From Candidatus Omnitrophota bacterium (GTDB taxonomy: Bacteria > Omnitrophota > Gorgyraeia > Gygaellales > Profunditerraquicolaceae): a stretch of DNA of 64,000 bases. Positions 5,253 to 34,317 of this stretch are shown here, piece after piece. The stretch is taken from NCBI GenBank assembly GCA_041662125.1, contig JBAZTA010000001.1:3118-67117 (forward strand). Reading direction: 5' to 3'. Numbering within the stretch: position 1 is the stretch's first letter; each line of letters starts with the position of its first letter. The notes beneath the pieces were generated by a model that saw only the letters and a program-made list of their open reading frames with translations, had not been told where the DNA came from and ran no database searches. Made by a program: the position numbers and the translations under genes.

Positions 5253-6434
5253 TTACCGACAAAACCCTTTATTACTCCGTGTTTCCTCAATAATATTTAA
5301 AATCTTTTGCGCAATATCATGCCAATTATATTGTGTTTTTGTTATGCTATAACCTTTTTCTATATATTCCGCCACTAAATCTCCGCCAAAGATTATTTTC
5401 TTTATTTCACCCACTAATTCGTCTTCGGTATCCGCATAAAAGAGAAAACCAGTATCAATATTCTTCACCTCATCCAACCTCGTACTGATGACTGGCTTCT
5501 TCATAGAAAGATACTCGAATAATTTAATCGGGCAGGCACCGTGTGAAATCGGAATCTTTTTAAAAACATTTAAACAAATATCCATCGCATCAATATGTTT
5601 TATCACTTCAGCATGCGGTAGGCCTCCGGTCAAGATAATATTTTTTAACTTTTTTGTTTCAATTGAATTCTTCACTTTTTGATATTCTCTGCCAGTGCCT
5701 ACTAACAAAAAAGTATATTGAGTTAATCTTTCAGCAGTATTAAGTATTAACTCAAAGTCAATAAAATACTCAAAAGCGCCAATAAAACCAACAATTGGCT
5801 TTCTTAGTTTCTCTCTTATTGCTTGCCCACTCCCCCAAGAAGATTCTTTAATATTAACCCCGTTGGGAATTACATAGATTTTATTGCCGTTTACAGCTAT
5901 GGAGTCAGCTAATACTTGAGATACTGCAAAGGTAAGATCCGATTTCTTAATCATTTCATTTAGAATTCTATTGCCGATTTTAAAAATTAAAGGATTACTG
6001 AATTTTCCTAATTCATGCTTTAACATTGCATTATAATCATCAGCGAAATCAAAAATCTTCAGGCAAGAGCTAAACTTAAGCAAAGGATATTGAGGTATAT
6101 TATAAAGAAATAGCACATCGATATTATATCTTTTAATTATTTCTTTGACTTTTTTAACAGATTTAAAACTATAATAACCTTTTTTAATAAGCTTATTGAG
6201 CGGAAGTTGTTGATTCCATATATACGAATTAATTTCAACCTCGTGCAAATGCAGATTTTCTGGTAAATCAATTTTTATTTCCTGGAAATTAGTTTCTATT
6301 GATTTCTGAGGAGGAGACTGAATCACGTGAACTTCATGGCCTAATTCCGCTAACAAAGTAAAAATCTGATGATATCTCGTCCAATTAACTGCCTTCCACC
6401 TCGCCATATAGGGAAATAAGAAATTCATTTTCAA
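5253..6434 (-). CDS. Glycosyltransferase family 4 (GT-B, group 1)
   Basis: 393 aa; C-terminal E-x7-E-type motif KLFEYLSMKKPVIST. Confidence 0.6.
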   Translation of the reverse strand: MKMNFLFPYMARWKAVNWTRYHQIFTLLAELGHEVHVIQSPPQKSIETNFQEIKIDLPENLHLHEVEINSYIWNQQLPLNKLIKKGYYSFKSVKKVKEIIKRYNIDVLFLYNIPQYPLLKFSSCLKIFDFADDYNAMLKHELGKFSNPLIFKIGNRILNEMIKKSDLTFAVSQVLADSIAVNGNKIYVIPNGVNIKESSWGSGQAIREKLRKPIVGFIGAFEYFIDFELILNTAERLTQYTFLLVGTGREYQKVKNSIETKKLKNIILTGGLPHAEVIKHIDAMDICLNVFKKIPISHGACPIKLFEYLSMKKPVISTRLDEVKNIDTGFLFYADTEDELVGEIKKIIFGGDLVAEYIEKGYSITKTQYNWHDIAQKILNIIEETRSNKGFCR

Positions 6435-7549
6435 TCCTTTTTAAATTCTTTCAAGATTACGCTTACAATTCTTTTAGCGGCTTTTCCATCGCCATAAGGA
6501 CTTATTGATTTTGACATTTTATTATATTCGCGAATGTCAGAAATTAATAATTGTACTTGTTTAATTATATTGGCCTTATCAACTCCTACAAGCTTAGCTA
6601 CCCCTGCTTTTACTCCTTCTGGTCTTTCGGTCTCCGCTCTCATCACCAAAACCGGTTTACCAAATGTAGGAGCTTCTTCTTGTATACCCCCAGAATCAGT
6701 AAGCACAAGATAAGATTGCTTTAAAAGAAAAACTAGCGTTTGATAATCAATAGGACGGATGAGATGGATACGCTTAATTCCAGAAAGTAATCTATACACT
6801 ACACCCTTAACATTAGGATTAAGATGGACAGGATATACCACTTCTATATCAGGATTATTTTGTACAATTGATTTTATCGCAAGGCATATATTCTCAAGTG
6901 GTAACCCAAAATTCTCTCTTCTATGCGCAGTAACTAAGATTAACCTGCTTTTTACAGGAATGCATAAATTGAAAGCCGATTTAAACTTTCTCTTAGCGAT
7001 AAGTTTGAGAGCATCTACTACAGTATTTCCCGTAAGAAAAATGTTGTCTTTAGGAATGCCTTCTTTTATCAACTCTTTGAACGAACTATTTGTAGGTGCA
7101 AAGTGATGGGTAGCCAATACACTTATTATCCTGCGATTTATTTCTTCCGGAAACGGATTATATCTATCTTTAGTGCGTAACCCGGCCTCAACGTGTCCAA
7201 TGGGAATCCTTTTATAAAAAGCGGCTAATGCCCCTACCATAGCAGTTGTCGTATCACCTTGAACTAAGATTAAATCAGGTTTTACCTTTTCTAAAGTTTT
7301 AGTTAATTCTCTAAGCGCATTTGAGGTCAAAGAATCAAGGGTTTGATTTTCTTGCATCAGGTTCAAATCAACATCAGGCCTAATATTGAAAAGTTTTAAG
7401 ACCTGATCCAGCATTTCCCTATGCTGCGAAGTTACACAAACAATGGTCTTAAATCGTTTAGGATATTTCAAAAATTCCTTCACAACCGGAGCCATTTTAA
7501 TCGCTTCAGGCCTGGTGCCAAAAATAATCATTACCTTTAACCGATTCAT
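6431..7549 (-). CDS. wecB: UDP-N-acetylglucosamine 2-epimerase (non-hydrolysing)
   Basis: 372 aa; N-terminus MIIFGTRPEAIKMAPV typical of WecB/MnaA family. Confidence 0.8.
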   Translation of the reverse strand: MNRLKVMIIFGTRPEAIKMAPVVKEFLKYPKRFKTIVCVTSQHREMLDQVLKLFNIRPDVDLNLMQENQTLDSLTSNALRELTKTLEKVKPDLILVQGDTTTAMVGALAAFYKRIPIGHVEAGLRTKDRYNPFPEEINRRIISVLATHHFAPTNSSFKELIKEGIPKDNIFLTGNTVVDALKLIAKRKFKSAFNLCIPVKSRLILVTAHRRENFGLPLENICLAIKSIVQNNPDIEVVYPVHLNPNVKGVVYRLLSGIKRIHLIRPIDYQTLVFLLKQSYLVLTDSGGIQEEAPTFGKPVLVMRAETERPEGVKAGVAKLVGVDKANIIKQVQLLISDIREYNKMSKSISPYGDGKAAKRIVSVILKEFKKD

Positions 7550-8493
7550 GAGTGCTCCCTTTCTGTTGCCTTCTCGTGCCCTTCAATTATATCCTTATAG
7601 GTAGCAACAAGCATCTCAGGCTCTTTCTCATTAATAAAATCCAAAATACTGCCGAATTTATTCATTTTTAACACATCAAAAGGGTCAATGTAGATATTAA
7701 TATATGAATTGGTAGAAATGCCCAATTCAACCAGCTCTTTAAAAAGATTTATATATTCTTCCTCAGTGCTATGGATCATCCTATAGAACAATCTCTTTGA
7801 ATTGAAAGAATGCCACGTATCAAAAACAGTAAACGGATGCTTCGGACAGGTAGTCAATGGAAATTCCCAAATCTCCTCCTTTGCCATAAAAGGCATGCCG
7901 TGGCTATAGGTATTAGTCAATAAAGTCGAAGATGAATATTTATATCCCAGATCCTTCAATATTCCGTAAATTTCGACAGAAAAAAGGTTCTTGAAATGCG
8001 GAATTCTGCACCCAACAGGAGAATACCCTAGGATGTCTTTACAAACATCATGACATTTTTCAATTTCTGCTTTTTTCTCTTCCCTACATATCAGCTTAAA
8101 TTTTCTCCCTGGGCTTAGGATCTCATTATCCGGATGAGAAAAAGTATGATTCACTATTTCATGTCCGTAATCTAAAATCATTTTATGCTCTCCCGGATAT
8201 TTCTCAATCCAATGGCCAACACAAGCAAAGCTAGTCTTGAAATTATATTTCTTTAATAGCTTGAGGACATCCGGCATAGCTTCCACATCTCTAGGGTAAT
8301 CGCAGTCAAAAGAAATAGTCAAGCAGGATTTTTTGCCTTTCCATGAATTTTGTCTGCCCTTGTTGTTCTCCAAGCTTTTCTTAAGAAAATACCTGGGACA
8401 CAAAGAAGTTATTAACCCAGCTAACAGAATATTACTACTATGATCATTGATCGTTTTGATTATATTTTTTGTCATTATTGATTCATCCCGCAA
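7546..8493 (-). CDS. Polysaccharide deacetylase (CE4/NodB family)
   Basis: NodB motifs SFDCD, HEIVNHTFSHP and CRIPHF read from translation. Confidence 0.65.
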   Translation of the reverse strand: MRDESIMTKNIIKTINDHSSNILLAGLITSLCPRYFLKKSLENNKGRQNSWKGKKSCLTISFDCDYPRDVEAMPDVLKLLKKYNFKTSFACVGHWIEKYPGEHKMILDYGHEIVNHTFSHPDNEILSPGRKFKLICREEKKAEIEKCHDVCKDILGYSPVGCRIPHFKNLFSVEIYGILKDLGYKYSSSTLLTNTYSHGMPFMAKEEIWEFPLTTCPKHPFTVFDTWHSFNSKRLFYRMIHSTEEEYINLFKELVELGISTNSYINIYIDPFDVLKMNKFGSILDFINEKEPEMLVATYKDIIEGHEKATEREHS

Positions 8494-8523
8494 TAAATCC
8501 GGGATCCCGTAAAATTACTTTTA

Positions 8524-9876
8524 TTACCAGCAGATACCATCATACTCCCTATTCTTACCTTTGTTTTCACAGATTCTTACCAAATCAATGATATTCTGTT
8601 CGGGTTTTACTAACTCAAGAATATTCTTAAACTCAGATGCCGAGTTTCCGATGATTATGGTCTCGGCGTGGTTAATTATATCGCTAATACTATCCACCAT
8701 CAACCTAGAAATATGCGGAATAGTATTAAGGATAAAATCGCGGTTAGCTCCGATAAGACTTGAAAGTTTCACATTATTGTCATAAATCTTGACTTCATAA
8801 CCTTTTCCTATAAGCCGCTCGATCAATTCGACCACCGGGCTTTCGCGCAGATCATCAGTACCAGCTTTGAAACTGAACCCCAGAACCCCAATCTTCTTCT
8901 TTCCCTTTGCCATAACCATGTTCAATCCCCGATCAACCTGAAGCTCATTACTAATAAGGATACTGTTAAGAATCGGTAGGTTCAAGTCAAGGCTACGTGC
9001 TTTATAGGTCAAAGCCCGTAGATCTTTAGGAAGACAAGACCCGCCGAAAGCAAACCCTGGTTTCATATAGTAGGGTGATATATTTAGTTTTGTATCTTGG
9101 CAGAAAATATTCATAACTGTATGGCTGTCGATATCGAGCTCCTTACAGATATTGCCGATCTCATTGGCAAAACCGACCTTTAAACCATGCCATACGTTAT
9201 CAACGTATTTAATCATTTCCGCGACTTCTACCTGGGAACGGATAAGCGGGGCTTTAAGTTTTTCATAGATCAAAGCTATGAGGTCGCCGCTTTCCTTGTC
9301 AATCTCGCCAATCACGATCTTAGGAGGGTTGTAATAATCATAGACAGCAGTTCCTTCGCGTAAAAATTCCGGATTAGAACAAACGCCGAAATCTTTGCCA
9401 ACAGTCTTACCGGAAGCTTCTTCTAAAGCCGGTATGACTAGATTACGCATAGTACCCGGTAAACAAGTGCTTCTAATGACTACCACGTGGCGATTGCTTT
9501 TGTTTTTTATGGCTTTACCGATTTCCTCGCAGACCTTTCGAATATGCTTCAGATCCAAGTTGCCGTTCAATTGGCTGGGAGTACCCACACAAACAAAAGA
9601 AATATCGGTTTTAGCTATCACTTCCTCAGTGTTAGTGGTAGCGATTAAACGACCGGCTTTTACATTCTTAGAAATAAGCTCTCCTATATCCTTCTCAATG
9701 ATAGGAGAACATCCCTGATTAATTGCATCAACTTTGCCTTTTGCCGGATCAACGCCTAAGACAGTATGGCCATCTTCAGCCAAGCAAGCCGCAGAAACCG
9801 CTCCAACATAACCGATACCAAAAATACTTATTTTCATTTCCACTCCTTTTTTTATAGAATTATCCGCAATATTCAA
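8524..9876 (-). CDS. Nucleotide-sugar dehydrogenase (UDP-glucose/GDP-mannose dehydrogenase family; possibly UDP-ManNAc dehydrogenase WecC-like given adjacent wecB)
   Basis: 450 aa; N-terminal Rossmann GIGYVGAVSAACLA; family-typical catalytic Cys region GGSCLPKD. Confidence 0.75.
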   Translation of the reverse strand: MNIADNSIKKGVEMKISIFGIGYVGAVSAACLAEDGHTVLGVDPAKGKVDAINQGCSPIIEKDIGELISKNVKAGRLIATTNTEEVIAKTDISFVCVGTPSQLNGNLDLKHIRKVCEEIGKAIKNKSNRHVVVIRSTCLPGTMRNLVIPALEEASGKTVGKDFGVCSNPEFLREGTAVYDYYNPPKIVIGEIDKESGDLIALIYEKLKAPLIRSQVEVAEMIKYVDNVWHGLKVGFANEIGNICKELDIDSHTVMNIFCQDTKLNISPYYMKPGFAFGGSCLPKDLRALTYKARSLDLNLPILNSILISNELQVDRGLNMVMAKGKKKIGVLGFSFKAGTDDLRESPVVELIERLIGKGYEVKIYDNNVKLSSLIGANRDFILNTIPHISRLMVDSISDIINHAETIIIGNSASEFKNILELVKPEQNIIDLVRICENKGKNREYDGICW

Positions 9877-11065
9877 TTAAAATTTTTTCAAAATTCTTAG
9901 TCACTGCCTTCCACTCATAATTTTCCACAACATGCTGTCTAGCGGCTACTCCGATAGTTTTGCGCCTGACAGGATCTTTAAAAAGCCTAATGATCTCTTC
10001 GGCGAATAACTCGTCAGTATCTGCGATTACGATATTTTTATTATTTTCATACTGCAAACCTTCTGCACCGATCGTCGTTGATACAATCGCTTTTTCCATG
10101 GACATCGCCTCAAATACCTTAAGCCTGGTACCGCCACCAACTCTTAAAGGAACAATGTATATCTGAGCGCGATCGATATAAGGCAGAACATCGTCAACGC
10201 TACCAGTGATCTCTACTGAAGAATCAATATTCTTCAATTCCTTCACTTCAGCAGTAGGTAGCCGGCCGACAACTGTCAAATTAACCTGAGGCACAACACT
10301 TTTAACCTTAGGGTAGATCGACTTAACAAAATAAACCATGGCGTCCTCGTTAGGAAGCCAATCCATAGATCCGGTAAATACCAGATTGTAAGATTTTTCT
10401 CCTCCACCGATAGGGCTATAAGCTGTTGTATCTACTCCAGTAGAAATCACAGAAGCATACTTTGCTCCGAAATCCAGAAGCTTCTTCTTGTCACCTTCAG
10501 ATACGGCAATAAAAGCTTTGAACTTTAAGCAGCAGTTTTTTTCATACTTCAACACCTTCAACCATTGCAGAAATAAATACGCTTTTTCGAACAGGTTATT
10601 TCTAACCTTGTAATGCCTTTGCCAGATCATAGATTCGATATTATGTTCAAACAGCACTGTCCTATTCCAGTATCTTTCAGGTATCAATGCTGTAGAAGAT
10701 AAATAATCGCAAACGATTATATCAAAGTCTCCGATATCAATAGTTGAGCTTACTAACTTCCGCATTACAACATCACAATACTTGCTAATAATGTAAGGAC
10801 GGCTGGAAAAAAAATTTAAGAACAGCCTTAGGAAAAAGAAACCTGTGAATTTCTTTTCCATCTTCTTTTTTATGAAAATAAACTTGGAACTGCAATTCTT
10901 CATAAGTTCTACCAGCTCTTTTTCCGCCAAGTAAGCATCATCCAGATAACTTAAATAAGTTATGGAGTGTTCCTTATTCATGTTCTTTAATAAATTGCAG
11001 GTGCGGATATTACCCCCTTTATTTAAAGGATACGGCACCGTCATACTCACCCAAAGTATCTTCAT
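9860..11065 (-). CDS. Glycosyltransferase family 4
   Basis: 401 aa; motif KVFEAMSMEKAIVSTTIGAEG. Confidence 0.6.
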   Translation of the reverse strand: MKILWVSMTVPYPLNKGGNIRTCNLLKNMNKEHSITYLSYLDDAYLAEKELVELMKNCSSKFIFIKKKMEKKFTGFFFLRLFLNFFSSRPYIISKYCDVVMRKLVSSTIDIGDFDIIVCDYLSSTALIPERYWNRTVLFEHNIESMIWQRHYKVRNNLFEKAYLFLQWLKVLKYEKNCCLKFKAFIAVSEGDKKKLLDFGAKYASVISTGVDTTAYSPIGGGEKSYNLVFTGSMDWLPNEDAMVYFVKSIYPKVKSVVPQVNLTVVGRLPTAEVKELKNIDSSVEITGSVDDVLPYIDRAQIYIVPLRVGGGTRLKVFEAMSMEKAIVSTTIGAEGLQYENNKNIVIADTDELFAEEIIRLFKDPVRRKTIGVAARQHVVENYEWKAVTKNFEKILIEYCG

Positions 11066-11085: not shown

Positions 11086-12300
11086 TTAAATATTTACTGA
11101 TTTATTGTACTTTACAGGCTCTGATAAAACTCCCCGAAAAACATTTAAATATTTTCCGGCGGCATTCTCCCATGAACTGCCGTTAAGGCTATTGCGAATC
11201 TGAGCTGCATCCCAATCTTTATCCAATACCTTTTCGAACTTATCAGCAAGCTCCTGCACATTACCTCTTTCAAATAACACTCCGTTAACAGGACTTACCA
11301 TCTCTGGAATGCCTCCGACTCTTGAAGCAACAACCGGTCTTCCGGAAGCAATCGCCTCCAAGATAACATTAGGACACCCTTCCATAATACTGGGAAGGCA
11401 AAGCAAGTCACATGCTCCGTACCAAATAGGCAGTTCCTGCCGGATTTTTTCTCCGACAAAAAACACTTTATCTTTGATATTCTTTCCCTGAGCTTTTTTC
11501 TCGCATTGCGTTTTAAGCTCACCTGCTCCGACCAAAACTAAAATGCAATCATTCTTAGCTTTACGCACCAAACTTTCAAAAGCTTCCAATAAATAATCAA
11601 CGCCTTTAATAATAATAAGCCTACCCACAAAAAGAATAATCTTTGAACTTTTGTTAAAACCAAGCATCTGTCGGCATTCAGTTTTATCTTTCAGATCGAA
11701 TTTTTGCAGTTCAACTCCGTTTCTAATAACTTCTAACTTCTCAACCCTGATACCAAGGCCAATTGCCAGATCTTTTTGTGCCTGACTTACAACAATAGTC
11801 TTATCCGCGCTTTGCAGAGCCCCTTTTATCTGGAACCTTCTTAACCGGTAGGTAGAATATAAATTGAGATCCGTACCTAAAGCCGTAAGCACATGTGGAA
11901 TCTTTAATATCCGTGCTATCCAGCTGACAGCTACTCCGTCAGGAAAAATACACTGGGTATTTATAAGCGATATCTTTTTCTTCTTGGACAACTGTAATAA
12001 TTTCGGCAACAAAGCCAAAAATATTAAGACCGTATGAAAAGCCCCGCATTTGGGCAAAGCAAGGTACTTCGGACTAAAGACTTTTATCCCTTCTATCTCA
12101 AATTCCTCGGGAATAAGGCTGAACTTGCGAAATTTAGCGACTTTGCCCAACAACTTTGGTACCCAGGGTAACGGCGATATTACGGTCAATTCGCAAGTTT
12201 TATTCAAAACCCGCACAATATTATACACAAATATCCCCCGCAGAGGTTCCTGAGGGTTCGGGAAAAGATTGGTGATAACTACTAGTTTCATCTTAGCCAT
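11086..12300 (-). CDS. Glycosyltransferase family 4. Start is probably MAKMKLVVITN, internal to the listed ORF.
   Basis: Motif EGCPNVILEAIASGRPVVASRVGGIPE. Confidence 0.6.
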   Translation of the reverse strand: MAKMKLVVITNLFPNPQEPLRGIFVYNIVRVLNKTCELTVISPLPWVPKLLGKVAKFRKFSLIPEEFEIEGIKVFSPKYLALPKCGAFHTVLIFLALLPKLLQLSKKKKISLINTQCIFPDGVAVSWIARILKIPHVLTALGTDLNLYSTYRLRRFQIKGALQSADKTIVVSQAQKDLAIGLGIRVEKLEVIRNGVELQKFDLKDKTECRQMLGFNKSSKIILFVGRLIIIKGVDYLLEAFESLVRKAKNDCILVLVGAGELKTQCEKKAQGKNIKDKVFFVGEKIRQELPIWYGACDLLCLPSIMEGCPNVILEAIASGRPVVASRVGGIPEMVSPVNGVLFERGNVQELADKFEKVLDKDWDAAQIRNSLNGSSWENAAGKYLNVFRGVLSEPVKYNKSVNI

Positions 12301-12311: not shown

Positions 12312-13511
12312 TTAAATATTCGGCAAAAAATTCCAGAAAATGTTCTGCGAATATAAAAGGCAGCATTTTTTGCACGAATCGAACAAGCCTTTTTGTTTGA
12401 GTCTCTTCCTAAAATTAACTGCTTTATCGGAATTAATGATCTCATTAATACTGTTCTGCCTCAAATTACCCATAGCAACTGACAAAGAACAGGGATAAAC
12501 ATTACCATAAGGATCTATCCGACAAGAGTACCATGGGGAAAAGCATTTCTTTACGATACTGTAATCAGGAACGTTAAAAAACTTTTTTCTAGTCTTTCTT
12601 CCCACTATCGACATCTCTACAGACTGGTTAAGCTGCTTGGAACGCAAAAGAACAGTTTCAATCTCCTTTTCAAGCATATCTGTATCGATCTTGCCAATCT
12701 CATCTGACATAATAAAACTTTCCTGCTTTATGAAATTGCCCTGAAGCTCTTTTTTGGTATTATCCGCATTTTCCTCGTTAGAAAATATTATCGGGTCTAT
12801 TGTAAGCGGCAACCCCTTTTCTTTAGCGATTCCTACCAATTCAACCAGATGCTCCTGGTTCAACCTTGACACTGTACAAAGAAAATTTAGATTAGGACAA
12901 TTCCTTCCCTGACTGATCTTCTCCCGGCTAATCCAATCCACAGCATTCATGATATTATCGTATATCCTGGCTTTTCTGATAAATTCATGCACTTCTTTAG
13001 GCCCATCTAGAGAGATCGTGATATTATCCACTCCTATCTCTACGACTTTTCTGGCAATTTCCTGAGTTATTAAACCTGCATTAGAAGTATAAGAAACCTT
13101 GAAACCAGACTTTATAGCCAAATCCGTAATCTCCAGGATATCCTTTCTCAAAAAAACCTCGCCTCCGGAGAAATTTATGTATTCCGTACCGAGTTTTTTC
13201 AAGTCTTCAAAAAGCTTTCTGAACTCGCTAACAGCAAGCTCCTTACCATTCTTCATAGACTCCAGCAGACCTTTACCACCGTCAGTATGTATCCCGTAAA
13301 GAGGGCACATCTGACATCTGCAATTGCATAAGAATGTAACTTCTATACAGATCTCTTTAAGGGAACGGATTTTTCCCATGCCAAATAAATAATCAGGATA
13401 ATATGACCTAATCGCCTTACTTAGACCCCGGAGGTTCTTTAGAAAAACCGGAGATATAATTTCCTTCAAAAAAGCCCTCATCCTTATGTTCATGATACAT
13501 TTTCCTTTCAT
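12312..13511 (-). CDS. Radical SAM enzyme with C-terminal SPASM-like Cys cluster
   Basis: CNCRCQMC matches CxxxCxxC; C-terminal CFSPWYSC...PCSLS...CKKCC auxiliary cluster; embedded among glycosyltransferases. Confidence 0.7.
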   Translation of the reverse strand: MKGKCIMNIRMRAFLKEIISPVFLKNLRGLSKAIRSYYPDYLFGMGKIRSLKEICIEVTFLCNCRCQMCPLYGIHTDGGKGLLESMKNGKELAVSEFRKLFEDLKKLGTEYINFSGGEVFLRKDILEITDLAIKSGFKVSYTSNAGLITQEIARKVVEIGVDNITISLDGPKEVHEFIRKARIYDNIMNAVDWISREKISQGRNCPNLNFLCTVSRLNQEHLVELVGIAKEKGLPLTIDPIIFSNEENADNTKKELQGNFIKQESFIMSDEIGKIDTDMLEKEIETVLLRSKQLNQSVEMSIVGRKTRKKFFNVPDYSIVKKCFSPWYSCRIDPYGNVYPCSLSVAMGNLRQNSINEIINSDKAVNFRKRLKQKGLFDSCKKCCLLYSQNIFWNFLPNI

Positions 13512-13518: not shown

Positions 13519-16500
13519 TTACGCAGCGATCTGGCAATATAACTTTTCATATTCGCTGGTCATTTTTTCAATCGAAAATTGTTCTATAACTACTTGAAGC
13601 GCCCTTCTTCCCATAGTTATCGACTCTTGATGGTTCTGCAACATCCAGATAATAGCCTGCGCCAATTTGTCCGGAGATCTGGAAGGAATTAATAAACCTG
13701 TTTTACTATTAGCGATTACTTCCGGATTTCCTCCGACTTCAGTAGCGATTATCGGCAAAGCCGCTGACATCGCCTCTAAAAGGGTTATTGATAATCCCTC
13801 GCTTAAACTCGATAAGATGAATATATCTAATATTCTTAGAAGTTCTGGGATATCTCTTCTATCCCCAAGGAATATCACTTCTTTTTCTATATTCAATTGC
13901 CTGGCATACTGTTTAAGCTCTTCCATCATCGGACCGTTACCGATAAGCAGCAGTCTAATATCTGGCAGCTGCGAAAAAGCTATTTTGAATCCATCCATTA
14001 ACGTCTTGTGATCCTTGACCGGTGCTAACCTAGCGATATTTCCTATCACCCGGCAAACACTCGGTATACCAAAAACTGTCTTATCCGGTTTTAACGCGGC
14101 TTCATTACTGTATTTCTTAGTGTCTATGCCATTGTAGACGACCTTTATTTTCTTGGCATTTACTTTTGCTTTTACCAATAAATACTCCGCGACATTTTTG
14201 ACCACGCAAACTACCGCAGTGGTCCTGATAGCCAGGTAACGCAGGAAATATATAAGTTTAAACTCTTCAGGCCTTAAAGTTGAATGCTGGGTATGGATAA
14301 TCTTCGTTTTTTTAAGCCCGATACATGCCAATACCGCATAAAACCACTGGGCGGCATTATGAGAATGCACAATATCAATATTCTGATCTTTAAAAAGCTT
14401 ACTTAGTTTAATAATAAGCTTTAAATCTATGCCTTCTTGCTTTTTTTCTTGATAAAATGCAATACCCAACTGCTCAAACTCATTCTTCAGGAAATTCTTT
14501 TCTTTAAACGAACAAACACTGATGTTAAACCGGCTTTTATCTAAAGATCTGCACATTGCCAAGATCAAAGTTTCGATACCGCCAATATCGAAAGAATAAT
14601 TCAAGAATAACAAATTAATCTTTCTATCAATAAGTTTATTTCCTTTTTCCAAGGACAATGGAAAATTAATATTTAAGACTAGGCTTTTTAAGAATAAAAC
14701 TATCGCCTGGATAGTGAAATGGCATCGCATACTCTCAAGGATAAGATACTGTGATTCTTTAATATGTCTGTACCATAACAGGTCCTGGGCGTAATCAATG
14801 TTAATCCGTGCCGTGATTTTCGAGATAAACTTTTTATTGCGTGCAACGAATTCAGGATTATCTCGGGAAAAATTATCAATCACTTTTAGTCGGTTTTTGG
14901 TAACCAACTGATTACTTAAGGAATTAGCGCTTTTCTTGTACTTCACTAGAGGTTGAACAATCAAACCAATCTTATAATTCATACTTACCTTAAGCATAAT
15001 ATCTACATCTTCAGCAGTAGTTAAGCTCTCGCTAAATAAACCCACATCTTCAAGAATTTTCTTTTTAGTTAACATGTAAGAACAAGTTGTAGACTTCTTC
15101 TCAAGGAGCATTTTTAACACTTCTTTAACCCCTAATTCTTCCTTTTTAACAGTCTTTTTAATGTCCGAAAAAGATATTTTCTTATTATTTGCATTTAATA
15201 TCTCAACTTCCGAAATCACCATACCTAATTCTGGATTTGAACTTAACAAATCTATCTGCTTTTTAAGCTTCTCAGGATACCAACGGTCATCTGAATCTAA
15301 AAAAGCCACGTATTCTCCTTTACTTTCCTTAATAGCCTTGTTACGCGCATTAGAACAGCCAACATGTTCATAATACAAATATCTTATTTTATTTTTATAA
15401 CCATTTAATATTTCTTGAGTATTATCAGTAGAGCCGTCATCAGAAACAATGATTTCTACGTTTTTGTATGACTGATTGATAACACTATCGATCGCTTGAC
15501 AGATTAAATCAGCCCTATTATAGGTAGGTATAATAACGCTTATTAGCGGTTCGCCTGGTTTAATAGATATTTCAACCTTTCCTCTATCTTTATAACTCTT
15601 ATCCACATAAGAAATGACTTCTATAAGAAAACTTTTTAGATACAAAAATGTTGCTTTAAGAGAAAAATTATTAAATAGGCTTTTTCTTGCCTGATTGCGG
15701 CTATCATTGATATACCTGTATAACAACAAGTCTTCGGCATATCTTAAATGCACTACAGATATCGTTTTTTTTAGGATATCATTGTTTTCTTTTGCCAAAA
15801 CAGGATAGATTTTTTTAAACTTCGCAATGACCCGTAGCCGGTTCTGAGTAAATAAACTATGACTAAGCGAATTGGCGACTTTACGGTATTTTAAAAGCGA
15901 CTCCGGAAAAAGGGCAATCTTATACTCGGCTGCAATTCTTAGAAAATAATCGATATCTGCGGCTGTCTTTAAATTTTCATCAAACTCTCCAATATAAGCG
16001 ACAACATCCTTCCTAACGATCATATTAGAAAACATCCCCACGAGATTTTTAAGCATATAAGAAAGAACGTGTCCATCGCGAGGAAAATCATTCTTAAAGC
16101 TGCTGCAAAACAGTTTCTTGCCGTTTATATCGATAAACTCTATTTCGCTGATAATAGCTCCGAAACTATCGTTTTTTTCCATAAAGCCTATCAACTTTTG
16201 CAGTCTTTCCAAACACCAGATATCATCTGAATCCAAGAAAGCTATATATTTGCCTCTGGCTTTTTTAACCCCGAAATTCCTGGCGCTTGATTCTCCGCCG
16301 TTATCCTTATAATAATAATCTATTTTGTTCTCATAGGCTTCCAATACTTCCCGGGTATTATCTATTGAACCGTCATCTATAATAATGATCTCGAAATCTT
16401 TGGAAGTCTGCGCCAAAACGCTATCAATAGACTCCGATATGGTATCAGCCCTATTGTATGTCGGAATAAGTACGCTTACCAAAGGAACCTTATTTTCCAT
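13519..16500 (-). CDS. Three-domain glycosyltransferase (GT2-GT2-GT4 fusion)
   Basis: 993 aa; two VLIPTYNRAD/VIIPTYNRAD GT2 N-terminal signatures plus C-terminal GT4 motif LLEAMSAALPIIATEVGGNPE. Confidence 0.65.
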   Translation of the reverse strand: MENKVPLVSVLIPTYNRADTISESIDSVLAQTSKDFEIIIIDDGSIDNTREVLEAYENKIDYYYKDNGGESSARNFGVKKARGKYIAFLDSDDIWCLERLQKLIGFMEKNDSFGAIISEIEFIDINGKKLFCSSFKNDFPRDGHVLSYMLKNLVGMFSNMIVRKDVVAYIGEFDENLKTAADIDYFLRIAAEYKIALFPESLLKYRKVANSLSHSLFTQNRLRVIAKFKKIYPVLAKENNDILKKTISVVHLRYAEDLLLYRYINDSRNQARKSLFNNFSLKATFLYLKSFLIEVISYVDKSYKDRGKVEISIKPGEPLISVIIPTYNRADLICQAIDSVINQSYKNVEIIVSDDGSTDNTQEILNGYKNKIRYLYYEHVGCSNARNKAIKESKGEYVAFLDSDDRWYPEKLKKQIDLLSSNPELGMVISEVEILNANNKKISFSDIKKTVKKEELGVKEVLKMLLEKKSTTCSYMLTKKKILEDVGLFSESLTTAEDVDIMLKVSMNYKIGLIVQPLVKYKKSANSLSNQLVTKNRLKVIDNFSRDNPEFVARNKKFISKITARINIDYAQDLLWYRHIKESQYLILESMRCHFTIQAIVLFLKSLVLNINFPLSLEKGNKLIDRKINLLFLNYSFDIGGIETLILAMCRSLDKSRFNISVCSFKEKNFLKNEFEQLGIAFYQEKKQEGIDLKLIIKLSKLFKDQNIDIVHSHNAAQWFYAVLACIGLKKTKIIHTQHSTLRPEEFKLIYFLRYLAIRTTAVVCVVKNVAEYLLVKAKVNAKKIKVVYNGIDTKKYSNEAALKPDKTVFGIPSVCRVIGNIARLAPVKDHKTLMDGFKIAFSQLPDIRLLLIGNGPMMEELKQYARQLNIEKEVIFLGDRRDIPELLRILDIFILSSLSEGLSITLLEAMSAALPIIATEVGGNPEVIANSKTGLLIPSRSPDKLAQAIIWMLQNHQESITMGRRALQVVIEQFSIEKMTSEYEKLYCQIAA

Positions 16501-16502
16501 AA

Positions 16503-17771
16503 TTAACCTCTATGTTCAAAAGCCATAATCCTCAGCCTTTCGATCACAAGTCTTAATTTTTCGATAGACCCTAGGCTGCGGCAAGGAACTTTCACTTTCA
16601 TAAGCCTACCAAAATTCAATACCTTGCTTTCTTTAGATAAAACATCTCCCAAGACAATCTCGCCTTCTTCATTTGCCTGATGCAGCTTATGCTTTTCATC
16701 GGTATACTTTAAATTCTGTTTAGTAACAACAGTAAGTCCTTTTACTACCCCGGGGTTATGGTTAGTGACGATTATCCCATCAGAGGTGGAAGAAATAGAT
16801 ATGTTTTTCACCTGTTCAAGTCTATCTAGTAAATCGCTGGTCGGCACAAACCAACCTTCTTTCCTACTGGCTAAATCTTCAAGAATTTCTTCAATATCCC
16901 GGCGTAAAACATAGTTGTCGTCATTAATTTTTTCACAGAAACCCGCGGCAAAATGTGTATAAACTATGCAACTTCCCCTTTCCCTGACAAGTTTATTAAC
17001 GTTTTTCTTCGTCAATAGTTTGCTAAAAAAAATCCCGTTATAACCGTCTGAAAAAGAAAACCAGTAATTCACATAAGGTTTTTCCTGTTCATGATAAGGC
17101 ATGCTCGGGTTGAATTTAAGGGTATTAATCTGCGAAGTCCCCCATAAACGCAGATATTTGGTTTTTTCCCTGCAAATATCGCCCCAGAAATACGGACTTT
17201 TGCGGTCCTCTCCGCTGAAATCAATCTTGGAATACATACTAACTAAATAACGCCATAGAGCATTACTAGAAATATTCCTACCCCAGTAAATGTTTTCCTT
17301 GTTCTTGGAATGCATTATGTTTATTTTAGGGTAACAACCAATGACCTCTTTAAATCTTTCATAACCTCTTCTGGTGACATCACTCGTATCATGACCGGAA
17401 GTAACAGTGTGTAGCGCTATCTCAAAACCTTTCTTCTGAAAATACTTGATGAACTTCAAATACGCAGCGTCTTCTAAAGTAGCACTTTCTTGCTGTTCCA
17501 TCTGATCCGGCATTGCCTCAAGATCTTTCGGTTTGAACACCCAGCAAGCGATCGTAGTCTTGAAACCCAGTTTATCCAAGGTATCATAGACTACTTTTAC
17601 CTTCTCTAGCTTTGCTCCATCGGGATCATCAGTCACAGTAAAGGCGAAATTCAATCCATCTGGGTAAGGCGAAACATAAAACACCGGCAACATTCTTTGC
17701 CGATAGAGCAAGAACGATGCCAACATCATTATCACCAAAATTAATAATAATCTATCGATTTTTAATTTCAT
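16503..17771 (-). CDS. Hypothetical membrane-anchored protein, possibly a divergent deacetylase-like fold
   Basis: 422 aa; single N-terminal TM; weak TVTDDPDG / HTVTSGHD motifs; 4-bp overlap with neighbours. Confidence 0.3.
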   Translation of the reverse strand: MKLKIDRLLLILVIMMLASFLLYRQRMLPVFYVSPYPDGLNFAFTVTDDPDGAKLEKVKVVYDTLDKLGFKTTIACWVFKPKDLEAMPDQMEQQESATLEDAAYLKFIKYFQKKGFEIALHTVTSGHDTSDVTRRGYERFKEVIGCYPKINIMHSKNKENIYWGRNISSNALWRYLVSMYSKIDFSGEDRKSPYFWGDICREKTKYLRLWGTSQINTLKFNPSMPYHEQEKPYVNYWFSFSDGYNGIFFSKLLTKKNVNKLVRERGSCIVYTHFAAGFCEKINDDNYVLRRDIEEILEDLASRKEGWFVPTSDLLDRLEQVKNISISSTSDGIIVTNHNPGVVKGLTVVTKQNLKYTDEKHKLHQANEEGEIVLGDVLSKESKVLNFGRLMKVKVPCRSLGSIEKLRLVIERLRIMAFEHRG

Positions 17772-19033
17772 TTTATGATATATGAGTAATAATACATCGA
17801 CATTATGACTACGATACTCAGAACATTCATTGCGTCCTTCCAGGTGAATTTTATATCTACCTCCTGCACACTCTTATGTAAAATATTTACTGCAGCAGCG
17901 CAAAGACCTAAAAGTAGATAAAATATATCAATCTCGTTAGTGACGAACAAAGTGCTGACATTAAGACCGATCAGACTTACCATCAATGCCGTTCCTAAAG
18001 ACGTAATATTTTCTTCTTTTAATTCGGCAATTACTTTTAATTTATATATCTGGCGCAATCCCTTAAAAGAAAAATATATTAAAGCCACCCATACAAAAAT
18101 TCCTATTCCACCGATCTCAGCGAGGTTTTGCATAAAATTACTGTGAGCAAGCATGTGACGAGAAGTAACCTGGATATATCTTCCTTTACCAACCCCAAAA
18201 AGCATATTTTCTTTAAAACACTCAATTGCATTGCTCCAAAGCCTTGTTCTTTCATGCACAGATGCTTCTTGGGTACTAATCTGACTCATACGCGAAGGAG
18301 CAAAATATACCAACATTACCCCAGCCAATAAGACGCCAATTATTATAGCGAACTTTTTATTTCTTAACTTCAGCATCGGATATAATAATAAGCTGATTAT
18401 CAACGTAAGAAAGCCACCTCTTGAATTGGTGGTATAAATCCCGGCAATCATGCATCCGCAAAGCAAGAAATTAATCACTCTAAAGAATAATGAATAATGA
18501 CCGAAGGAAAATTCCATCGCAAAAGGAACGGTTATATTCAGAAGTAACGACATCGCGTTTGCCCCATTCCATAACCCCACCCATTTTGTCCTTACTCCTA
18601 CACCACTATGGTAGAAATCCTGCCCGGCAATTCCGATCCCTCCGCTTATGAACTGAGAGACCGCCTGGACTGCGATAACACAAGAAAGCAACCCCATAAA
18701 GAACATGGTGTTCTTCAATTTCCTAGGAGTATTGACCAAGAGAATGATCATAAAGAAAATACAGGCCTTTTTAAAAAACAAGATGAATTCCTGTATGCCC
18801 ATATCCATATAACCGTTTACCGCGTCAGAAACTAGAATGATCAAAAGCAAAGCCATTAATAAAGAATATTGGGGTATCTTCACAAGCTTTACGCCGCTCT
18901 TGATTTTAATCATTAAACCAAGTATTAACGCCGGGATTATTACCAAAAAATCTACAGGCCAACCCAACAATTGTGGCACCCAGTCTTGGGGACGGATATA
19001 CAGATTTATCAGATACGTGTAGATTAAGATCAT
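17768..19033 (-). CDS. O-antigen ligase/polymerase-like membrane protein (Wzy_C domain)
   Basis: 421 aa polytopic; motifs TNSRGGFL and HSNFMQNLAEIGGIG typical of Wzy_C. Confidence 0.55.
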   Translation of the reverse strand: MILIYTYLINLYIRPQDWVPQLLGWPVDFLVIIPALILGLMIKIKSGVKLVKIPQYSLLMALLLIILVSDAVNGYMDMGIQEFILFFKKACIFFMIILLVNTPRKLKNTMFFMGLLSCVIAVQAVSQFISGGIGIAGQDFYHSGVGVRTKWVGLWNGANAMSLLLNITVPFAMEFSFGHYSLFFRVINFLLCGCMIAGIYTTNSRGGFLTLIISLLLYPMLKLRNKKFAIIIGVLLAGVMLVYFAPSRMSQISTQEASVHERTRLWSNAIECFKENMLFGVGKGRYIQVTSRHMLAHSNFMQNLAEIGGIGIFVWVALIYFSFKGLRQIYKLKVIAELKEENITSLGTALMVSLIGLNVSTLFVTNEIDIFYLLLGLCAAAVNILHKSVQEVDIKFTWKDAMNVLSIVVIMSMYYYSYIIK

Positions 19034-19052: not shown

Positions 19053-20555
19053 TTACCTTTTTATTCCCTTTAAAAGATCCTTGCGTTCATTTTCATTAAA
19101 GCCATAGAAAAAGCTGAAGATTATAAACAAAACTGCTCCCGCTAATCCTGCGGGAAACAACATCAAATATGAAGGCTTAATAAAACTTCTTAATGTAAAA
19201 GCAAAACATATGAAGAAAACCATGGATTTAATTACTGCCGGTAGTAGTGTTTTAAAGTAATAAAGGTACAATTTCAAACCAATTACCCTACAGACATAGA
19301 TGGGTTGAATGAATAAATTCATAACTGAATATGGGATTGTTACTCCCAATGCAATGCCCAAAAGGCCGTATTTTTTTACTAAAATCAAACTTAAAATCAG
19401 ATTAGAGAATCCTTCAATCGTATTAGCGAAAAAAGTGAACTTATGTTTAGAAATTCCGTAAAGTAATCCGCCTGTGGGAGTTTGCATAAGACAAAAAATA
19501 TTGGCTACGGTTAACATTGCCAACAAAGGATAAGCGGAAACATAAGCTTCCCCCATCCAAACCTGGATAAAATCGCGGCCCAAAATCAGAATTAAAGCAC
19601 CGATTAATATTGCTATATAACAGCTTATTTTGGTCGTAAATAGGAATTTTTCCCGTATTGAATTATAATCGTTTTTCCCTTCATATTGACTAAAAACCGG
19701 CATCAAAATCCCCATACTGCTCATCATAGCCTGGGAAAAATACTCTGTAAGACGTAAAGCTATGGAATAGATTGTGACTTCTTTCAAACCTAAAAAAGCG
19801 GCAATAATGAAGGAGGAAACTCGGAAACGCATCATCAGAGCGATATTCGCTCCCGCTGTTACAAAGCTGTATTTGAATATCGACTTGATTTTAGCCCTGT
19901 CTATCATATTTCGGGAAAAAACCATGTTTTTGTCCACTTTTTTCGCAAAAATAAAGGTCATGGCATACATCAGCATCTCGGTTGTAAAAGTTATCATCGC
20001 TAAAGTAAATAACCCGTTGTAGCGCTTCAAAAGAGTAAAAACTAAAGTTATGCGCAGAATATGGGTTACTATCTCTGTGGTAGTGTTTAAATCGTAACGC
20101 AGATGTGCTATCAGCACTCCTTTAAAAACTCGCATAGGAAAACCTATGGCTAAACTAAGACTAAGAACGGGTAGGATTGTTTGAAAAAGCCTTAGATTTA
20201 CGGCATCTTTTATAATATACGGTGATATAAAAACTAAGACTGCGGAAACCATAAGAATTACCACCCCGATAATCATATACAAATACAAAATGGTATTAAT
20301 AATCTTATTCATTTCCCGATCGTCATTGACTCCTATAGCCCTGGAAACAAATCTTTGTACTGCCTGCATCAGACCGAAATCAAACAGACCATAATATCCC
20401 ATGAAAGTGCCAATCAATACCCATAACCCATACATTTTGTCCCCAATGAAATGGATAATAAACGGCATCATCAACAATCCTACAATGGCGCTGATGAAAA
20501 ACTCAGTCACTCGGAAAGCCGAACCTTTTACCAAACGCTGTGCTTTTGAACTCAT
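19053..20555 (-). CDS. Polysaccharide/oligosaccharide flippase (MOP/Wzx family)
   Basis: 500 aa, ~12-14 TM segments, family-typical N-terminus. Confidence 0.6.
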   Translation of the reverse strand: MSSKAQRLVKGSAFRVTEFFISAIVGLLMMPFIIHFIGDKMYGLWVLIGTFMGYYGLFDFGLMQAVQRFVSRAIGVNDDREMNKIINTILYLYMIIGVVILMVSAVLVFISPYIIKDAVNLRLFQTILPVLSLSLAIGFPMRVFKGVLIAHLRYDLNTTTEIVTHILRITLVFTLLKRYNGLFTLAMITFTTEMLMYAMTFIFAKKVDKNMVFSRNMIDRAKIKSIFKYSFVTAGANIALMMRFRVSSFIIAAFLGLKEVTIYSIALRLTEYFSQAMMSSMGILMPVFSQYEGKNDYNSIREKFLFTTKISCYIAILIGALILILGRDFIQVWMGEAYVSAYPLLAMLTVANIFCLMQTPTGGLLYGISKHKFTFFANTIEGFSNLILSLILVKKYGLLGIALGVTIPYSVMNLFIQPIYVCRVIGLKLYLYYFKTLLPAVIKSMVFFICFAFTLRSFIKPSYLMLFPAGLAGAVLFIIFSFFYGFNENERKDLLKGIKR

Positions 20556-21559
20556 ATTTTCCCTTTTATCGCATCGATTATCCCAACAACATTGTTATTA
20601 AGCCAATCTTTCTTATCTGAAGCATCCATTAAGAATATTTGTCGGTACCTGTGTAGCACATGATCCAGCCAAAACAGAACCATCATCGGCTTGACCAGAT
20701 CACCTGGTAAGCCAAGCACGTCCAAATGAGCTTTTATGATCTGCTGCTCCCAAGAAGTAAAATTACCTTTTAAATATCTGTCGGTCAAACTCTTGGCTAC
20801 AGATTCTCCTGTAACTAATTTATGCTTATATATCAAAAGAAAAAAGATATCTAGAAGCGGCAATACTTCTTTATTCGATAAATCCCAGTCTATTACCCCT
20901 TTGATTTTCCGGCTTTTGGCATCAAAAAGGATATTCTCGATCTTATAATCTCCGTGCATCCAGACAGTCTTTATCAACCTGCCCGATAACTGCTTTTGGA
21001 CATTATCCTTGATCTTTTTTAGGTCTTTTTTTTGACTTTCATCAAGATAAAACGCAAGCCTTTCGAAATCAGCCCCAGCTAATTTCTCAAAATTACCGTT
21101 ATCAACCCGAATCTCCTTTGCGGTTTCTTTTTGAAAGCTTAGCAGGAAATCAGAAGCTTGAACGATAAACTCATCAATCAGACTGACCGGCACGGCCAAA
21201 GAAAAACCGAACAGCCTGGTCTCGCTAAAGCACCAGCGATCCTGAAGCTTCTCTTCGCTTAAAAACTTTGGGACAAACCCGGCAATGCTGGTATTTGCCA
21301 ATCCTTCCAATATCGACCTGTTATTCCGACACCTTAACAGGCTTAATTCATCATTAGGGATACGCACGACTTTATCTTCTGTCACTATCAAAACAGCATC
21401 CGGGCAACCTTTGATCACCTTTTTGACGTTCTTTAATCCTAAAAGCTTGATAGCTTCTGATACTTCTGGATACTTATTTATTGTCCAAAAGTCTACGACA
21501 CTCTTTTTCAAAACATCCTTAAAAATCATCCAGTTATCTGCAATGCTTAAAGAACTCAT
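20552..21559 (-). CDS. Phosphotransferase of the APH/choline-kinase protein-kinase-like fold
   Basis: 335 aa; HGDYKIENILFD ... IDWDLS catalytic/Mg-binding motifs. Confidence 0.5.
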   Translation of the reverse strand: MSSLSIADNWMIFKDVLKKSVVDFWTINKYPEVSEAIKLLGLKNVKKVIKGCPDAVLIVTEDKVVRIPNDELSLLRCRNNRSILEGLANTSIAGFVPKFLSEEKLQDRWCFSETRLFGFSLAVPVSLIDEFIVQASDFLLSFQKETAKEIRVDNGNFEKLAGADFERLAFYLDESQKKDLKKIKDNVQKQLSGRLIKTVWMHGDYKIENILFDAKSRKIKGVIDWDLSNKEVLPLLDIFFLLIYKHKLVTGESVAKSLTDRYLKGNFTSWEQQIIKAHLDVLGLPGDLVKPMMVLFWLDHVLHRYRQIFLMDASDKKDWLNNNVVGIIDAIKGKI

Positions 21560-22683: not shown

Positions 22684-22697
22684 CTTTATCTTAATAA

Positions 22698-24446: not shown

Positions 24447-24462
24447 TCTTAAATAGTGTCCT

Positions 24463-27971: not shown

Positions 27972-27978
27972 TATCTTA

Positions 27979-28833
27979 CTACAAAGAAGTTAAATATTGG
28001 CCATAACTGGTTGAAAAATCACTAGCTAATGCATGCAATTGTATTCTGTTAATAAAACCCATTCTATAGGCTACTTCTTCAATACAGCCTACTTTTAATC
28101 CCTGCCTATCTTCTACCGTTTTAATAAACATAGAAGCATCTATTAACGATTCATATGTTCCAGTATCAAGCCAAGCAAATCCCCTGCCTAAAGTCAAAAC
28201 GGTTAACTGACCTTTTTCTAAATATACGTTATTTACATCTGTAATCTCTAGTTCTCCTCTCTCTGAAGGTTTTATGCGTTTTGCAATATCTATTACCTGA
28301 TTATCATAGAAATACAACCCAGTAACAGCCCAGTGAGATTTTGGCTGCTTTGGTTTTTCTTCAATGGAAAGAGCGCGAAATTTTTCATCAAATTCTACCA
28401 CTCCATAACGCTCTGGATCTTTAACGTAATAACTTAAAACCATTGCTCCCTGTTTTAACATAGCTGCTTGGCTGAGTATTTCGGTAAGATTATGCCCATA
28501 AAAAATATTATCCCCCAACACTAATGATACTGTATCTTTACCAATAAAATCTTCACCAATAAGAAAGCTCTCAGCAAGACCAGCAGGCTTTTCCTGCTGC
28601 GCATAAGTTAAATTAATACCTAACTTTATGCCATCACCTAAAAGATCCTCGAATCTCGGTAAATCCTTTGGGGTAGAAATAATAAGGATATCCTTTATTC
28701 CACTTAACATTAATACCGAAAGAGGATAATAAATCATTGGTTTATCATAAATTGGGAGCATTTGCTTACAAACTCCCTTGGTAATTGGATACAACCTTGT
28801 AGCTTTGCCGCCAGCTAATATTATTCCTTTCAT
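27979..28833 (-). CDS. rfbA: Glucose-1-phosphate thymidylyltransferase
   Basis: [41 protein letters not shown] is near-consensus RmlA. Confidence 0.85.
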
Positions 28834-28835
28834 AC

Positions 28836-29835: not shown

Positions 29836-29836
29836 A

Positions 29837-31822: not shown

Positions 31823-31833
31823 TGTTTAGCTCC

Positions 31834-33240: not shown

Positions 33241-33245
33241 TTTAA

Positions 33246-34314: not shown

Positions 34315-34317
34315 ACT

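Follow-up and report, generated by a model that had tools for sequence, protein, structure and literature searches.

We analysed a 64,000-nucleotide stretch of DNA from Candidatus Omnitrophota bacterium (GenBank assembly GCA_041662125.1, contig JBAZTA010000001.1, positions 3,118 to 67,117 of the forward strand; this whole stretch is hereafter the window), in which a gene for a radical S-adenosylmethionine (SAM) enzyme, here called rSAM, lies within a polysaccharide locus. From its sequence and context we consider it reasonably likely that rSAM represents an uncharacterised clade of twitch-domain radical SAM enzymes whose substrate is a sugar or a lipid-linked repeat unit in Wzx/Wzy-type polysaccharide biosynthesis. 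A sugar substrate is favoured because 12 of the 14 independent loci that carry family members were glycan loci, and because fusions of a family 2 glycosyltransferase (GT2) to rSAM-like domains occurred among the relatives. The original prediction, made from the letters of the window alone, had named a sugar moiety as one possible substrate, and the conserved glycan context and the fusions spoke for that suggestion.

The rSAM open reading frame (ORF) was intact by ORF list and translation. It had been placed at 12312-13511; an ORF does exist there, listed as running up to ATG 13511 (399 aa), but it lies on the minus strand and 13511 is an upstream in-frame ATG. The gene likely starts at ATG 13493 (M7 of the listed ORF), because the sequence AAAGGA lies about 9 nt upstream of it, homologues begin there, and the database twin P0001, whose sequence is 100% identical to that of rSAM, is 393 aa long. 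All residue numbers below count from ATG 13493, that is, they refer to the 393-aa form. The gene and its parts are as follows.

12312..13493, minus strand: gene for the radical SAM/twitch-domain enzyme, 393 aa, from the ORF, Pfam, P0001, a Shine-Dalgarno-like motif and the AlphaFold2 (AF2) model.
13383..13493, minus strand: N-terminal extension of about 37 residues, basic, amphipathic and all-helical by DSSP of the AF2 model, not a RiPP recognition element (RRE; RiPP, ribosomally synthesised and post-translationally modified peptide).
13305..13328, minus strand: CNCRCQMC motif, residues 56-63, with C56/C60/C63 as the CxxxCxxC ligands of the SAM-binding [4Fe-4S] cluster.
12360..12545, minus strand: twitch-type auxiliary Fe-S domain, residues 317-378, from the Pfam SPASM match, the match to BtrN and Cys conservation.

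Pfam matched the protein with Radical_SAM (PF04055; E 4.1e-22, 79.6 bits, cutoff 29.5) and with SPASM (1.2e-14, 54.7 bits, cutoff 21.5), and both profile matches are far beyond chance. Conservation was followed in two alignments, a close one of the 31 nearest proteins (31-71% identity) and a wider one of 126 single-domain representatives that an exhaustive profile search had returned. The three Cys of the CxxxCxxC motif, C56, C60 and C63, were invariant in the 31 family members and kept in 124-126 of the 126 wider relatives, and the conservation of C58 was lost in the wider clade (10/126). The GGE SAM-binding motif, G110-G111-E112, was invariant across family members and wider relatives. The AF2 model (mean pLDDT 92.5, pTM 0.90) had a partial (beta/alpha)6 barrel, with six strands alternating with helices. 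By motif, profile score, GGE and barrel, therefore, rSAM is a member of the radical SAM superfamily, as the original prediction had read from CNCRCQMC, and one SAM-binding [4Fe-4S] cluster is predicted on C56/C60/C63. Ahead of the first strand of the barrel, DSSP assigned helices at residues 3-12, 15-29 and 31-37 and zero strands; family-wide, the first 40 residues contained 4-11 Lys plus Arg versus 1-5 Asp plus Glu, with a hydrophobic moment of up to 0.83.

The C-terminal part of rSAM contains six Cys, C317, C324, C335, C374, C377 and C378. All of these except the variable C324 were invariant in the 31 members, and C317/C335/C374/C377/C378 were retained in 125/122/125/124/110 of the 126 wider relatives; a further Cys, C206, was conserved in the close subfamily and retained in 63 of the 126. 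The seven-Cys SPASM motif (CX9-15GX4C...CX2CX5CX3C...C) was present in its first half (C317-x12-G-x4-C335) and not overall, since its CX2CX5CX3C half was absent from all 31 members in the alignment; downstream of C374-K-K-C377-C378 there are just 15 residues, free of Cys. The Pfam SPASM model nevertheless gives 54.7 bits, since it matches a single-cluster domain such as this one too. When the C-terminal 95 residues alone were compared with all PDB sequences, BtrN was the sole match (1.5e-5, or 3.3e-13 with the family profile), and C317/C335/C374/C377 aligned to BtrN C169/C187/C232/C235 (numbering of the printed alignment), the ligands of the single auxiliary cluster of BtrN. In the AF2 model a beta-hairpin at 323-333 was followed by a helix at 356-368, as expected for a twitch domain, and the twitch pattern C...beta-hairpin...C...helix...CxxC was found by alignment, by model and by conservation in 122-125 of the 126 relatives. 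Because of the five conserved C-terminal Cys, the BtrN-like alignment and the lack of CX2CX5CX3C, we concluded that rSAM is of twitch type, not full SPASM, with one probable auxiliary cluster, on C317/C335/C374/C377, and an extra conserved Cys, C378. An auxiliary domain of SPASM or twitch type with a C-terminal Cys cluster had been predicted, and the prediction is thereby narrowed to twitch.

The subfamily comparison that the original prediction had proposed led to twitch and to no named family. This classification rests on 25 of the 69 NCBIfam families found, and among the matches listed no curated radical SAM family reached its cutoff (N_Twi_rSAM 84 bits versus 170, W_rSAM_matur 83.3 versus 380, the others listed lying further below theirs); the curated families considered include N_Twi_rSAM, W_rSAM_matur, AhbD, NirJ, MftC, PqqE and MoaA. 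Membership in a characterised sugar C-methyl/epimerase radical SAM family unrelated to peptide maturation would have counted against the original prediction; no characterised family claims the protein. NCBIfam, PDB sequence and Foldseek searches gave superfamily-level matches only, with no close solved structure (12-18% identity), and similarity to BtrN, BlsE and DesII did not reach the full-length level of orthologues, the structure-based identity being 12-16%. A word-indexed homologue search showed an apparent cliff after 31 proteins, where E rose from 4e-54 to 4e-22, as if rSAM belonged to a small family of 31 members. An exhaustive hidden Markov model (HMM) search of 1.84 billion representatives instead returned 1,845 proteins at E <= 1e-30, counted as 50%-identity representatives, with continuous scores; the small family was therefore rejected and the cliff attributed to the limited sensitivity of the word-indexed search, from which alone any conclusion on family size would have been wrong. 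The clade to which rSAM belongs is large, widespread and coherent, has a fixed Cys signature, and is unnamed and uncharacterised.

The genomic context of the relatives was assessed in the 14 independent loci (designated L001 and so on), in which the rSAM proteins scored 358-655 bits with the family HMM. The 12 glycan loci among them represent Nitrospirota, 'Deltaproteobacteria', Omnitrophota, Alphaproteobacteria, Binatia, Schekmanbacteria and other lineages. Three gene orders recurred. In the first, found in L001, L004 and L089, rSAM lay between the gene for a Wzx flippase and a DUF2334-like gene, a gene without a Pfam assignment whose overlap with the end of rSAM is 4 nt in all three loci:

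L001 11191-12489, L004 11185-12579 and L089 11185-12477: copies of the DUF2334-like/no-Pfam gene.

Orthologues of the 422-aa DUF2334-like protein of the window were present in L001, L002 and L004 with 45-49% identity to the window copy; the gene in L089 is likened to it by size and position only. Wzx was directly upstream of rSAM in L001, L089, L004 and also L002, where the order was Wzx, rSAM, NodB deacetylase. The second order, formyltransferase, rSAM, GFO_IDH_MocA oxidoreductase, short-chain dehydrogenase/reductase (SDR) and family 4 glycosyltransferase (GT4), was shared by L006, L008 and L009, which belong to different lineages, and the third, rSAM, Wzy, GT4, methyltransferase and GT4, by L010 and L012. 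L088, whose rSAM is 65% identical, was syntenic with the window; in L003 and L090 rSAM lay between deacetylase and GT4 genes; and an EpsH exosortase was encoded within 10 kb of rSAM in L001, L089 and L090. Fusion proteins made the same association within single polypeptides: P0183 combined GT2, rSAM and SPASM domains and scored 244 bits to the family profile, and P0078 was a GT2-rSAM fusion encoded beside DegT, methyltransferase and GT4 genes. Another distant relative, P0032, was encoded among GT2, GT2-rSAM, B12-rSAM and sulfatase-family genes. Among distant relatives, 15 of 53 loci (each at least 12 kb) had at least three glycan-type ORFs nearby versus 0 of the 15 used for comparison, by a crude BLAST-based count that under-detects such genes. 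On these gene orders, rSAM is passed on as a component of loci for polysaccharide assembly.

Further radical SAM genes and modules were seen around these relatives. Most of the other long multidomain matches strung two to four radical SAM modules together in tandem; P0143, P0147, P0159, P0168 and P0220 (928-1927 aa) consisted of two to four such radical SAM/SPASM modules, related to the rSAM family, one with a B12-binding domain, and each may be a true fusion or a gene-calling artefact. A second radical SAM/SPASM gene adjoined genes for FemAB-like and GNAT acyltransferases in L001 (5385-6542) and L003 (1781-2950), two B12-binding radical SAM proteins were encoded in L089 (1-2164), and L091 (1266-10392) contained five radical SAM genes, one of them a GT2-rSAM fusion. 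Radical chemistry may be common in the exopolysaccharide (EPS) loci of bacteria carrying rSAM relatives.

If rSAM does act on a sugar, reductive cleavage of SAM would yield a 5'-deoxyadenosyl radical, and this radical would take a hydrogen from a sugar carbon. The substrate could be a nucleotide-sugar precursor, as hinted by the arrangement of formyltransferase, GFO_IDH_MocA and SDR genes, or it could be an undecaprenyl-diphosphate-linked repeat unit at the cytoplasmic face of the membrane, as hinted by the basic amphipathic N-terminus and by the adjacency of Wzx, Wzy and glycosyltransferase genes. How the substrate radical would be resolved is a guess, with epimerisation and oxidation as the likeliest candidates: either one of the conserved free cysteines (C378 or C206) gives the hydrogen back, which would give epimerisation as with NeoN and HygY, or an electron is lost to the auxiliary cluster, which would give oxidation or dehydration as with BtrN and AprD4. 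The outcome would be a sugar beyond the reach of ordinary NAD-dependent enzymes, made without oxygen. Granted a sugar substrate, we regard an epimerase as doubtful and a dehydrogenase or dehydratase as doubtful to the same degree, while some other chemistry has a real chance that still falls short of even. A bolder version, which we consider rather unlikely, is that rSAM performs a radical sugar transformation new to cell-surface polysaccharides, for example an oxygen-independent epimerisation, a deoxygenation or a C-C/C-O rearrangement, on the undecaprenyl-diphosphate-linked unit just before flipping by Wzx. If this were true, a radical SAM tailoring step would join the canonical Wzx/Wzy pathway, and many uncultured bacteria would be expected to have unusual sugars in their EPS.

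Several observations weigh against a sugar or lipid-linked repeat unit as the substrate. Two of the 14 family loci were not polysaccharide loci, L005 having rSAM among housekeeping genes with a PMT_2 GT-C gene downstream, and L007 having it among KdpD, URO-D and ABC transporter genes. Because no single nucleotide-sugar gene was kept in every context, no target sugar can be named. C206, one of the two candidate hydrogen donors, was kept in just half of the wider clade. No characterised homologue exceeded 18% identity, and the peptide enzymes SkfB, CteB and SuiB matched the fold as well as did BlsE, MoaA, DesII and viperin; because peptide enzymes and sugar or nucleotide enzymes match equally, the fold does not discriminate between substrate classes. 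Finally, SkfB is itself a twitch enzyme with a peptide substrate.

In the window, rSAM lies inside an array of some 35 genes, many of them for GT2 or GT4 enzymes, that all run in the same direction on the minus strand (about 219-42889, roughly 40 kb), within which no intergenic gap between 3031 and 35637 exceeded 40 nt. By gene content and spacing this is an operon-like Wzx/Wzy polysaccharide locus, and the Pfam and NCBIfam assignments of the neighbours bore out the original description of rSAM as embedded among GT4 and GT2 genes. The other features of the locus, in coordinate order, are these.

219-2795, minus strand: second beta-helix secreted protein, with an He_PIG/fn3-like end and without a CFI box, a paralogue of the protein at 3031-5214.
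3031..5214, minus strand: CFI-box surface protein, consisting of a beta-helix (Pel9A-like), fn3, a Gly8 linker and CFI-box-CTERM (NF041770).
5253..11065, minus strand: GT4, UDP-GlcNAc 2-epimerase, NodB-type polysaccharide deacetylase, UDP-sugar 6-dehydrogenase and GT4 (stp1-like), from Pfam and NCBIfam.
11086..12300, minus strand: GT4 (TuaC/stp2-like), downstream of rSAM, from Pfam, NCBIfam and the junction sequence.
13519..16500, minus strand: triple glycosyltransferase GT2-GT2-GT4, 993 aa, upstream of rSAM, from Pfam, with stp2-like and TuaG-like NCBIfam matches below cutoff.
16503..17771, minus strand: 422-aa protein with an N-terminal transmembrane segment and a weak DUF2334 match (Pfam), the recurrent partner of rSAM.
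17768..19033, minus strand: Wzy-type polymerase (Pfam Wzy_C).
19053..20555, minus strand: Wzx/MOP flippase (Pfam Polysacc_synt).
20552..42889, minus strand: remainder of the operon-like locus, from Pfam/NCBIfam and gene spacing.

Translational coupling of rSAM to its neighbours had also been proposed. The genes are indeed tightly packed, but no stop and start codons overlap: the upstream GT2-GT2-GT4 gene stops at 13519, leaving a gap of 25 nt before the rSAM start, and an 11-nt gap follows the rSAM stop if the downstream GT4 gene starts at ATG 12300. The listed start of that gene, GTG 12375, would give a 64-nt overlap with rSAM; ATG 12300 is the probable start and is preferred because, in the ORF counted from GTG, residue 29 is the first that the NCBIfam alignment covers. 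The syntenic counterpart of the 993-aa triple fusion in L088 was shorter, a GT2-GT4 protein of 682 aa, and L088 repeated the gene order of 5253..11065 minus the dehydrogenase. For the 422-aa DUF2334-like protein, no sequence relative was found in the PDB; it may be a functional partner of rSAM, perhaps a NodB-like deacetylase.

The remainder of the locus (20552..42889) included genes for a BY-kinase-like ATPase, an AAA_22 ATPase, a Wzz/GNVR co-polymerase and a Wza-like exporter, sugar genes (a dTDP-sugar/SDR set with RmlA, GT2 and further nucleotide-sugar enzymes), accessory genes (an APH-type kinase, two alpha/beta hydrolases of hydr1/2_PEP-like type, and an acyl-CoA ligase with an acyl carrier protein (ACP)) and amidotransferases that were WbuX-like and AsnB-like. 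Over the whole array the nucleotide-sugar enzymes were RmlA, SDRs, two UDP-sugar dehydrogenases, a phosphomannomutase and the UDP-GlcNAc 2-epimerase. The segments 22698-24446 and 29837-33518, on the minus strand, held the hydr1_PEP-like, hydr2_PEP-like, eps_aminotran_1-like AsnB, ligase_PEP_1-like and ACP genes, all with scores below the NCBIfam cutoffs, and a search of the 64-kb window for an exosortase found none. Outside the EPS locus, at 45479-46555 and 47287-48849 (minus strand), we noted a fusion of a ParA/MinD-type ATPase with a CBM48/AMPK-type glycogen-binding module, with a GH57 glycoside hydrolase gene one gene away.

Among other possible substrates of rSAM, a lipid, either the polyprenyl carrier or an acyl group supplied by the acyl-CoA ligase/ACP/hydrolase set, seems to us quite improbable. 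The basic amphipathic N-terminus suggests membrane association, and the ligase_PEP_1-like, ACP and hydr1/hydr2_PEP-like genes of the window could supply the acyl group, but the ligase/ACP/hydrolase set was missing beside most family members, with an AMP-ligase seen in L002 only. The lipid-modifying enzyme GDGT-MAS did occur among the PDB matches; that match was weak (4e-9) and confined to the core, and the GT2 fusions point to glycan rather than lipid chemistry.

Still less probable, in our judgement, is that rSAM is a protein or peptide maturase that cross-links or oxidises a protein of the locus, such as the Cys of the CFI-box tail of 3031-5214, or an unannotated peptide. SPASM and twitch radical SAM enzymes are chiefly known as maturases of peptides and proteins, SkfB, CteB, SuiB and the anaerobic sulfatase maturase anSME are among the top fold and profile matches of rSAM, and a CFI-box-CTERM protein with an invariant-looking Cys is encoded in the same operon; its CFI box matched NF041770 at 93.6 bits over residues 650-718, after the Gly8 linker. 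The original prediction had accordingly named this protein as a possible substrate and had proposed to look for co-occurrence, which we did not find in either direction. A motif regular expression and tblastn with the domain detected a CFI box in 0 of the 14 family loci, the single match being L087, the window's own twin, and the syntenic locus L088 lacked a CFI-box protein at that position. Conversely, a family-level rSAM was encoded in 0 of 80 CFI-box loci from metagenomes, which together span 543 kb and of which 22 measure 8 kb or more; the one generic radical SAM protein in them scored 95 bits as against at least 358 for family members. The Pel9A-like label of the beta-helix proteins was taken from the annotation of L087; both probably serve the locus as glycan lyases or depolymerases at the cell surface, and the CFI-box protein, with its Pel9A-like beta-helix, is more simply read as a surface-anchored enzyme of this kind.

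A peptide substrate of another sort fared no better. The N-terminus of about 37 residues was all-helical in the AF2 model, without the beta-sheet of an RRE, and Pfam found no PqqD-like RRE in the rSAM protein or its neighbours. The remark in the original prediction that no small precursor peptide is adjacent could be strengthened, as the absence of any gap above 40 nt over about 32 kb of the operon (3031-35637) leaves no room for a precursor gene; a hidden precursor beside rSAM was likewise rejected, the flanking gaps of 25 and 11 nt offering no intergenic space. Among the loci examined no small ORF recurred beside family members, and no non-glycan protein partner was conserved across contexts.

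That rSAM is an anSME-like activator, installing formylglycine or another group in a Sulfatase/Phosphodiest enzyme of the locus, is extremely improbable, for although anSME was among the PDB matches and Phosphodiest/Sulfatase genes lay within 10 kb in L001, L002, L004 and L089 and next to relatives in L091, a Sulfatase/Phosphodiest homologue was absent from the window (tblastn) and from L003, L006, L088 and L090, anSME is a full SPASM enzyme with two auxiliary clusters while the rSAM family lacks CX2CX5CX3C, no anSME model was among the matches listed (25 of 69 NCBIfam families), and NPP-type phosphodiesterases use a Thr or Ser nucleophile, not formylglycine.

A sugar or lipid-linked repeat unit therefore remains our preferred substrate for rSAM, which otherwise looks like an unremarkable representative of a known superfamily and of a known subclass, the twitch radical SAM enzymes. 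Radical SAM genes are often annotated in capsule, O-antigen and EPS loci, and the sugar-acting twitch enzymes known to us all come from antibiotic pathways. A full-text literature search turned up no radical SAM enzyme that has been characterised biochemically and comes from a Wzx/Wzy, exosortase or EPS locus, although its coverage was incomplete and does not prove absence. The present analysis contributes the delineation of a large unnamed clade associated with glycan loci, the resolution of its auxiliary domain as twitch, the finding of GT2 fusions and the rejection of the CFI-tail and peptide readings, including the tempting link between rSAM and the CFI-box sorting signal, which was removed as unsupported. 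The clade offers a concrete target in the search for oxygen-independent sugar chemistry in the surface polysaccharides of uncultured bacteria.

Of the known systems with which rSAM can be compared, the peptide and sulfatase enzymes SkfB (PDB 6EFN), CteB (5WGG), SuiB (5V1Q) and anSME (4K36) gave the top Foldseek and profile matches to its core (E 1e-12 to 1e-15). They differ in that identity is 13-17%, in that rSAM has no RRE, no precursor or target gene and no SPASM 7-Cys motif, and in that the context is glycan, not RiPP or sulfatase. At the level of the locus, we know of no radical SAM component described for the XrtA/PEP-CTERM system. The window and related loci resemble XrtA/PEP-CTERM (exosortase) exopolysaccharide loci, of the kind reportedly described by Haft and colleagues in 2006, in having stp1/stp2-like GT4s, an AsnB-like amidotransferase, hydr1/hydr2_PEP-like and ligase_PEP_1-like genes and a NodB deacetylase. 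In contrast to them, all NCBIfam scores of the window (stp1, stp2, hydr1/2_PEP, ligase_PEP_1, eps_aminotran_1) are below cutoff, the window has no exosortase, and its surface protein ends in a CFI-box tail, not in PEP-CTERM.

The sugar-acting radical SAM enzyme BlsE, the cytosylglucuronate decarboxylase of blasticidin S biosynthesis (PDB 7VOB), ranked first by TM-score when folds were compared (0.63/0.74, root-mean-square deviation 4.0), and the window carries genes for two UDP-sugar 6-dehydrogenases, enzymes that produce uronic acids. Identity to BlsE is 16%, however, with sequence similarity confined to residues 85-180, and the dehydrogenase is missing from L088 and most family loci; uronate decarboxylation is thus not a conserved theme and was set aside as the reaction of rSAM. 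NeoN, HygY and AprD4, from aminoglycoside pathways, abstract a hydrogen from a sugar carbon and resolve the radical by a Cys hydrogen donor or by the auxiliary cluster. The extra conserved Cys of the rSAM family, C378, with C206 in the close subfamily, recalls these enzymes, and the NAD(P)-type oxidoreductases encoded after rSAM in L006, L008 and L009 recall the pairing of AprD4 with AprD3; rSAM has no NCBIfam or PDB match to them, and the likeness is one of concept only, a lead.

The closest parallel to the auxiliary domain is BtrN, the 2-deoxy-scyllo-inosamine dehydrogenase of butirosin biosynthesis (PDB 4M7T/4M7S). The match is limited to the twitch domain, BtrN being an enzyme of about 250 aa that has neither the helices of the 37-residue N-terminal extension of rSAM nor its insert at 235-316; BtrN has Asn at the position of the conserved C378 of the rSAM family; and it belongs to an aminoglycoside antibiotic pathway, not to Wzx/Wzy polysaccharide assembly. 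BtrN needs no leader peptide. It shares with rSAM the twitch domain, the four aligned Cys and the architecture of a single auxiliary cluster, and its substrate is carbohydrate-like, as we propose for that of rSAM.

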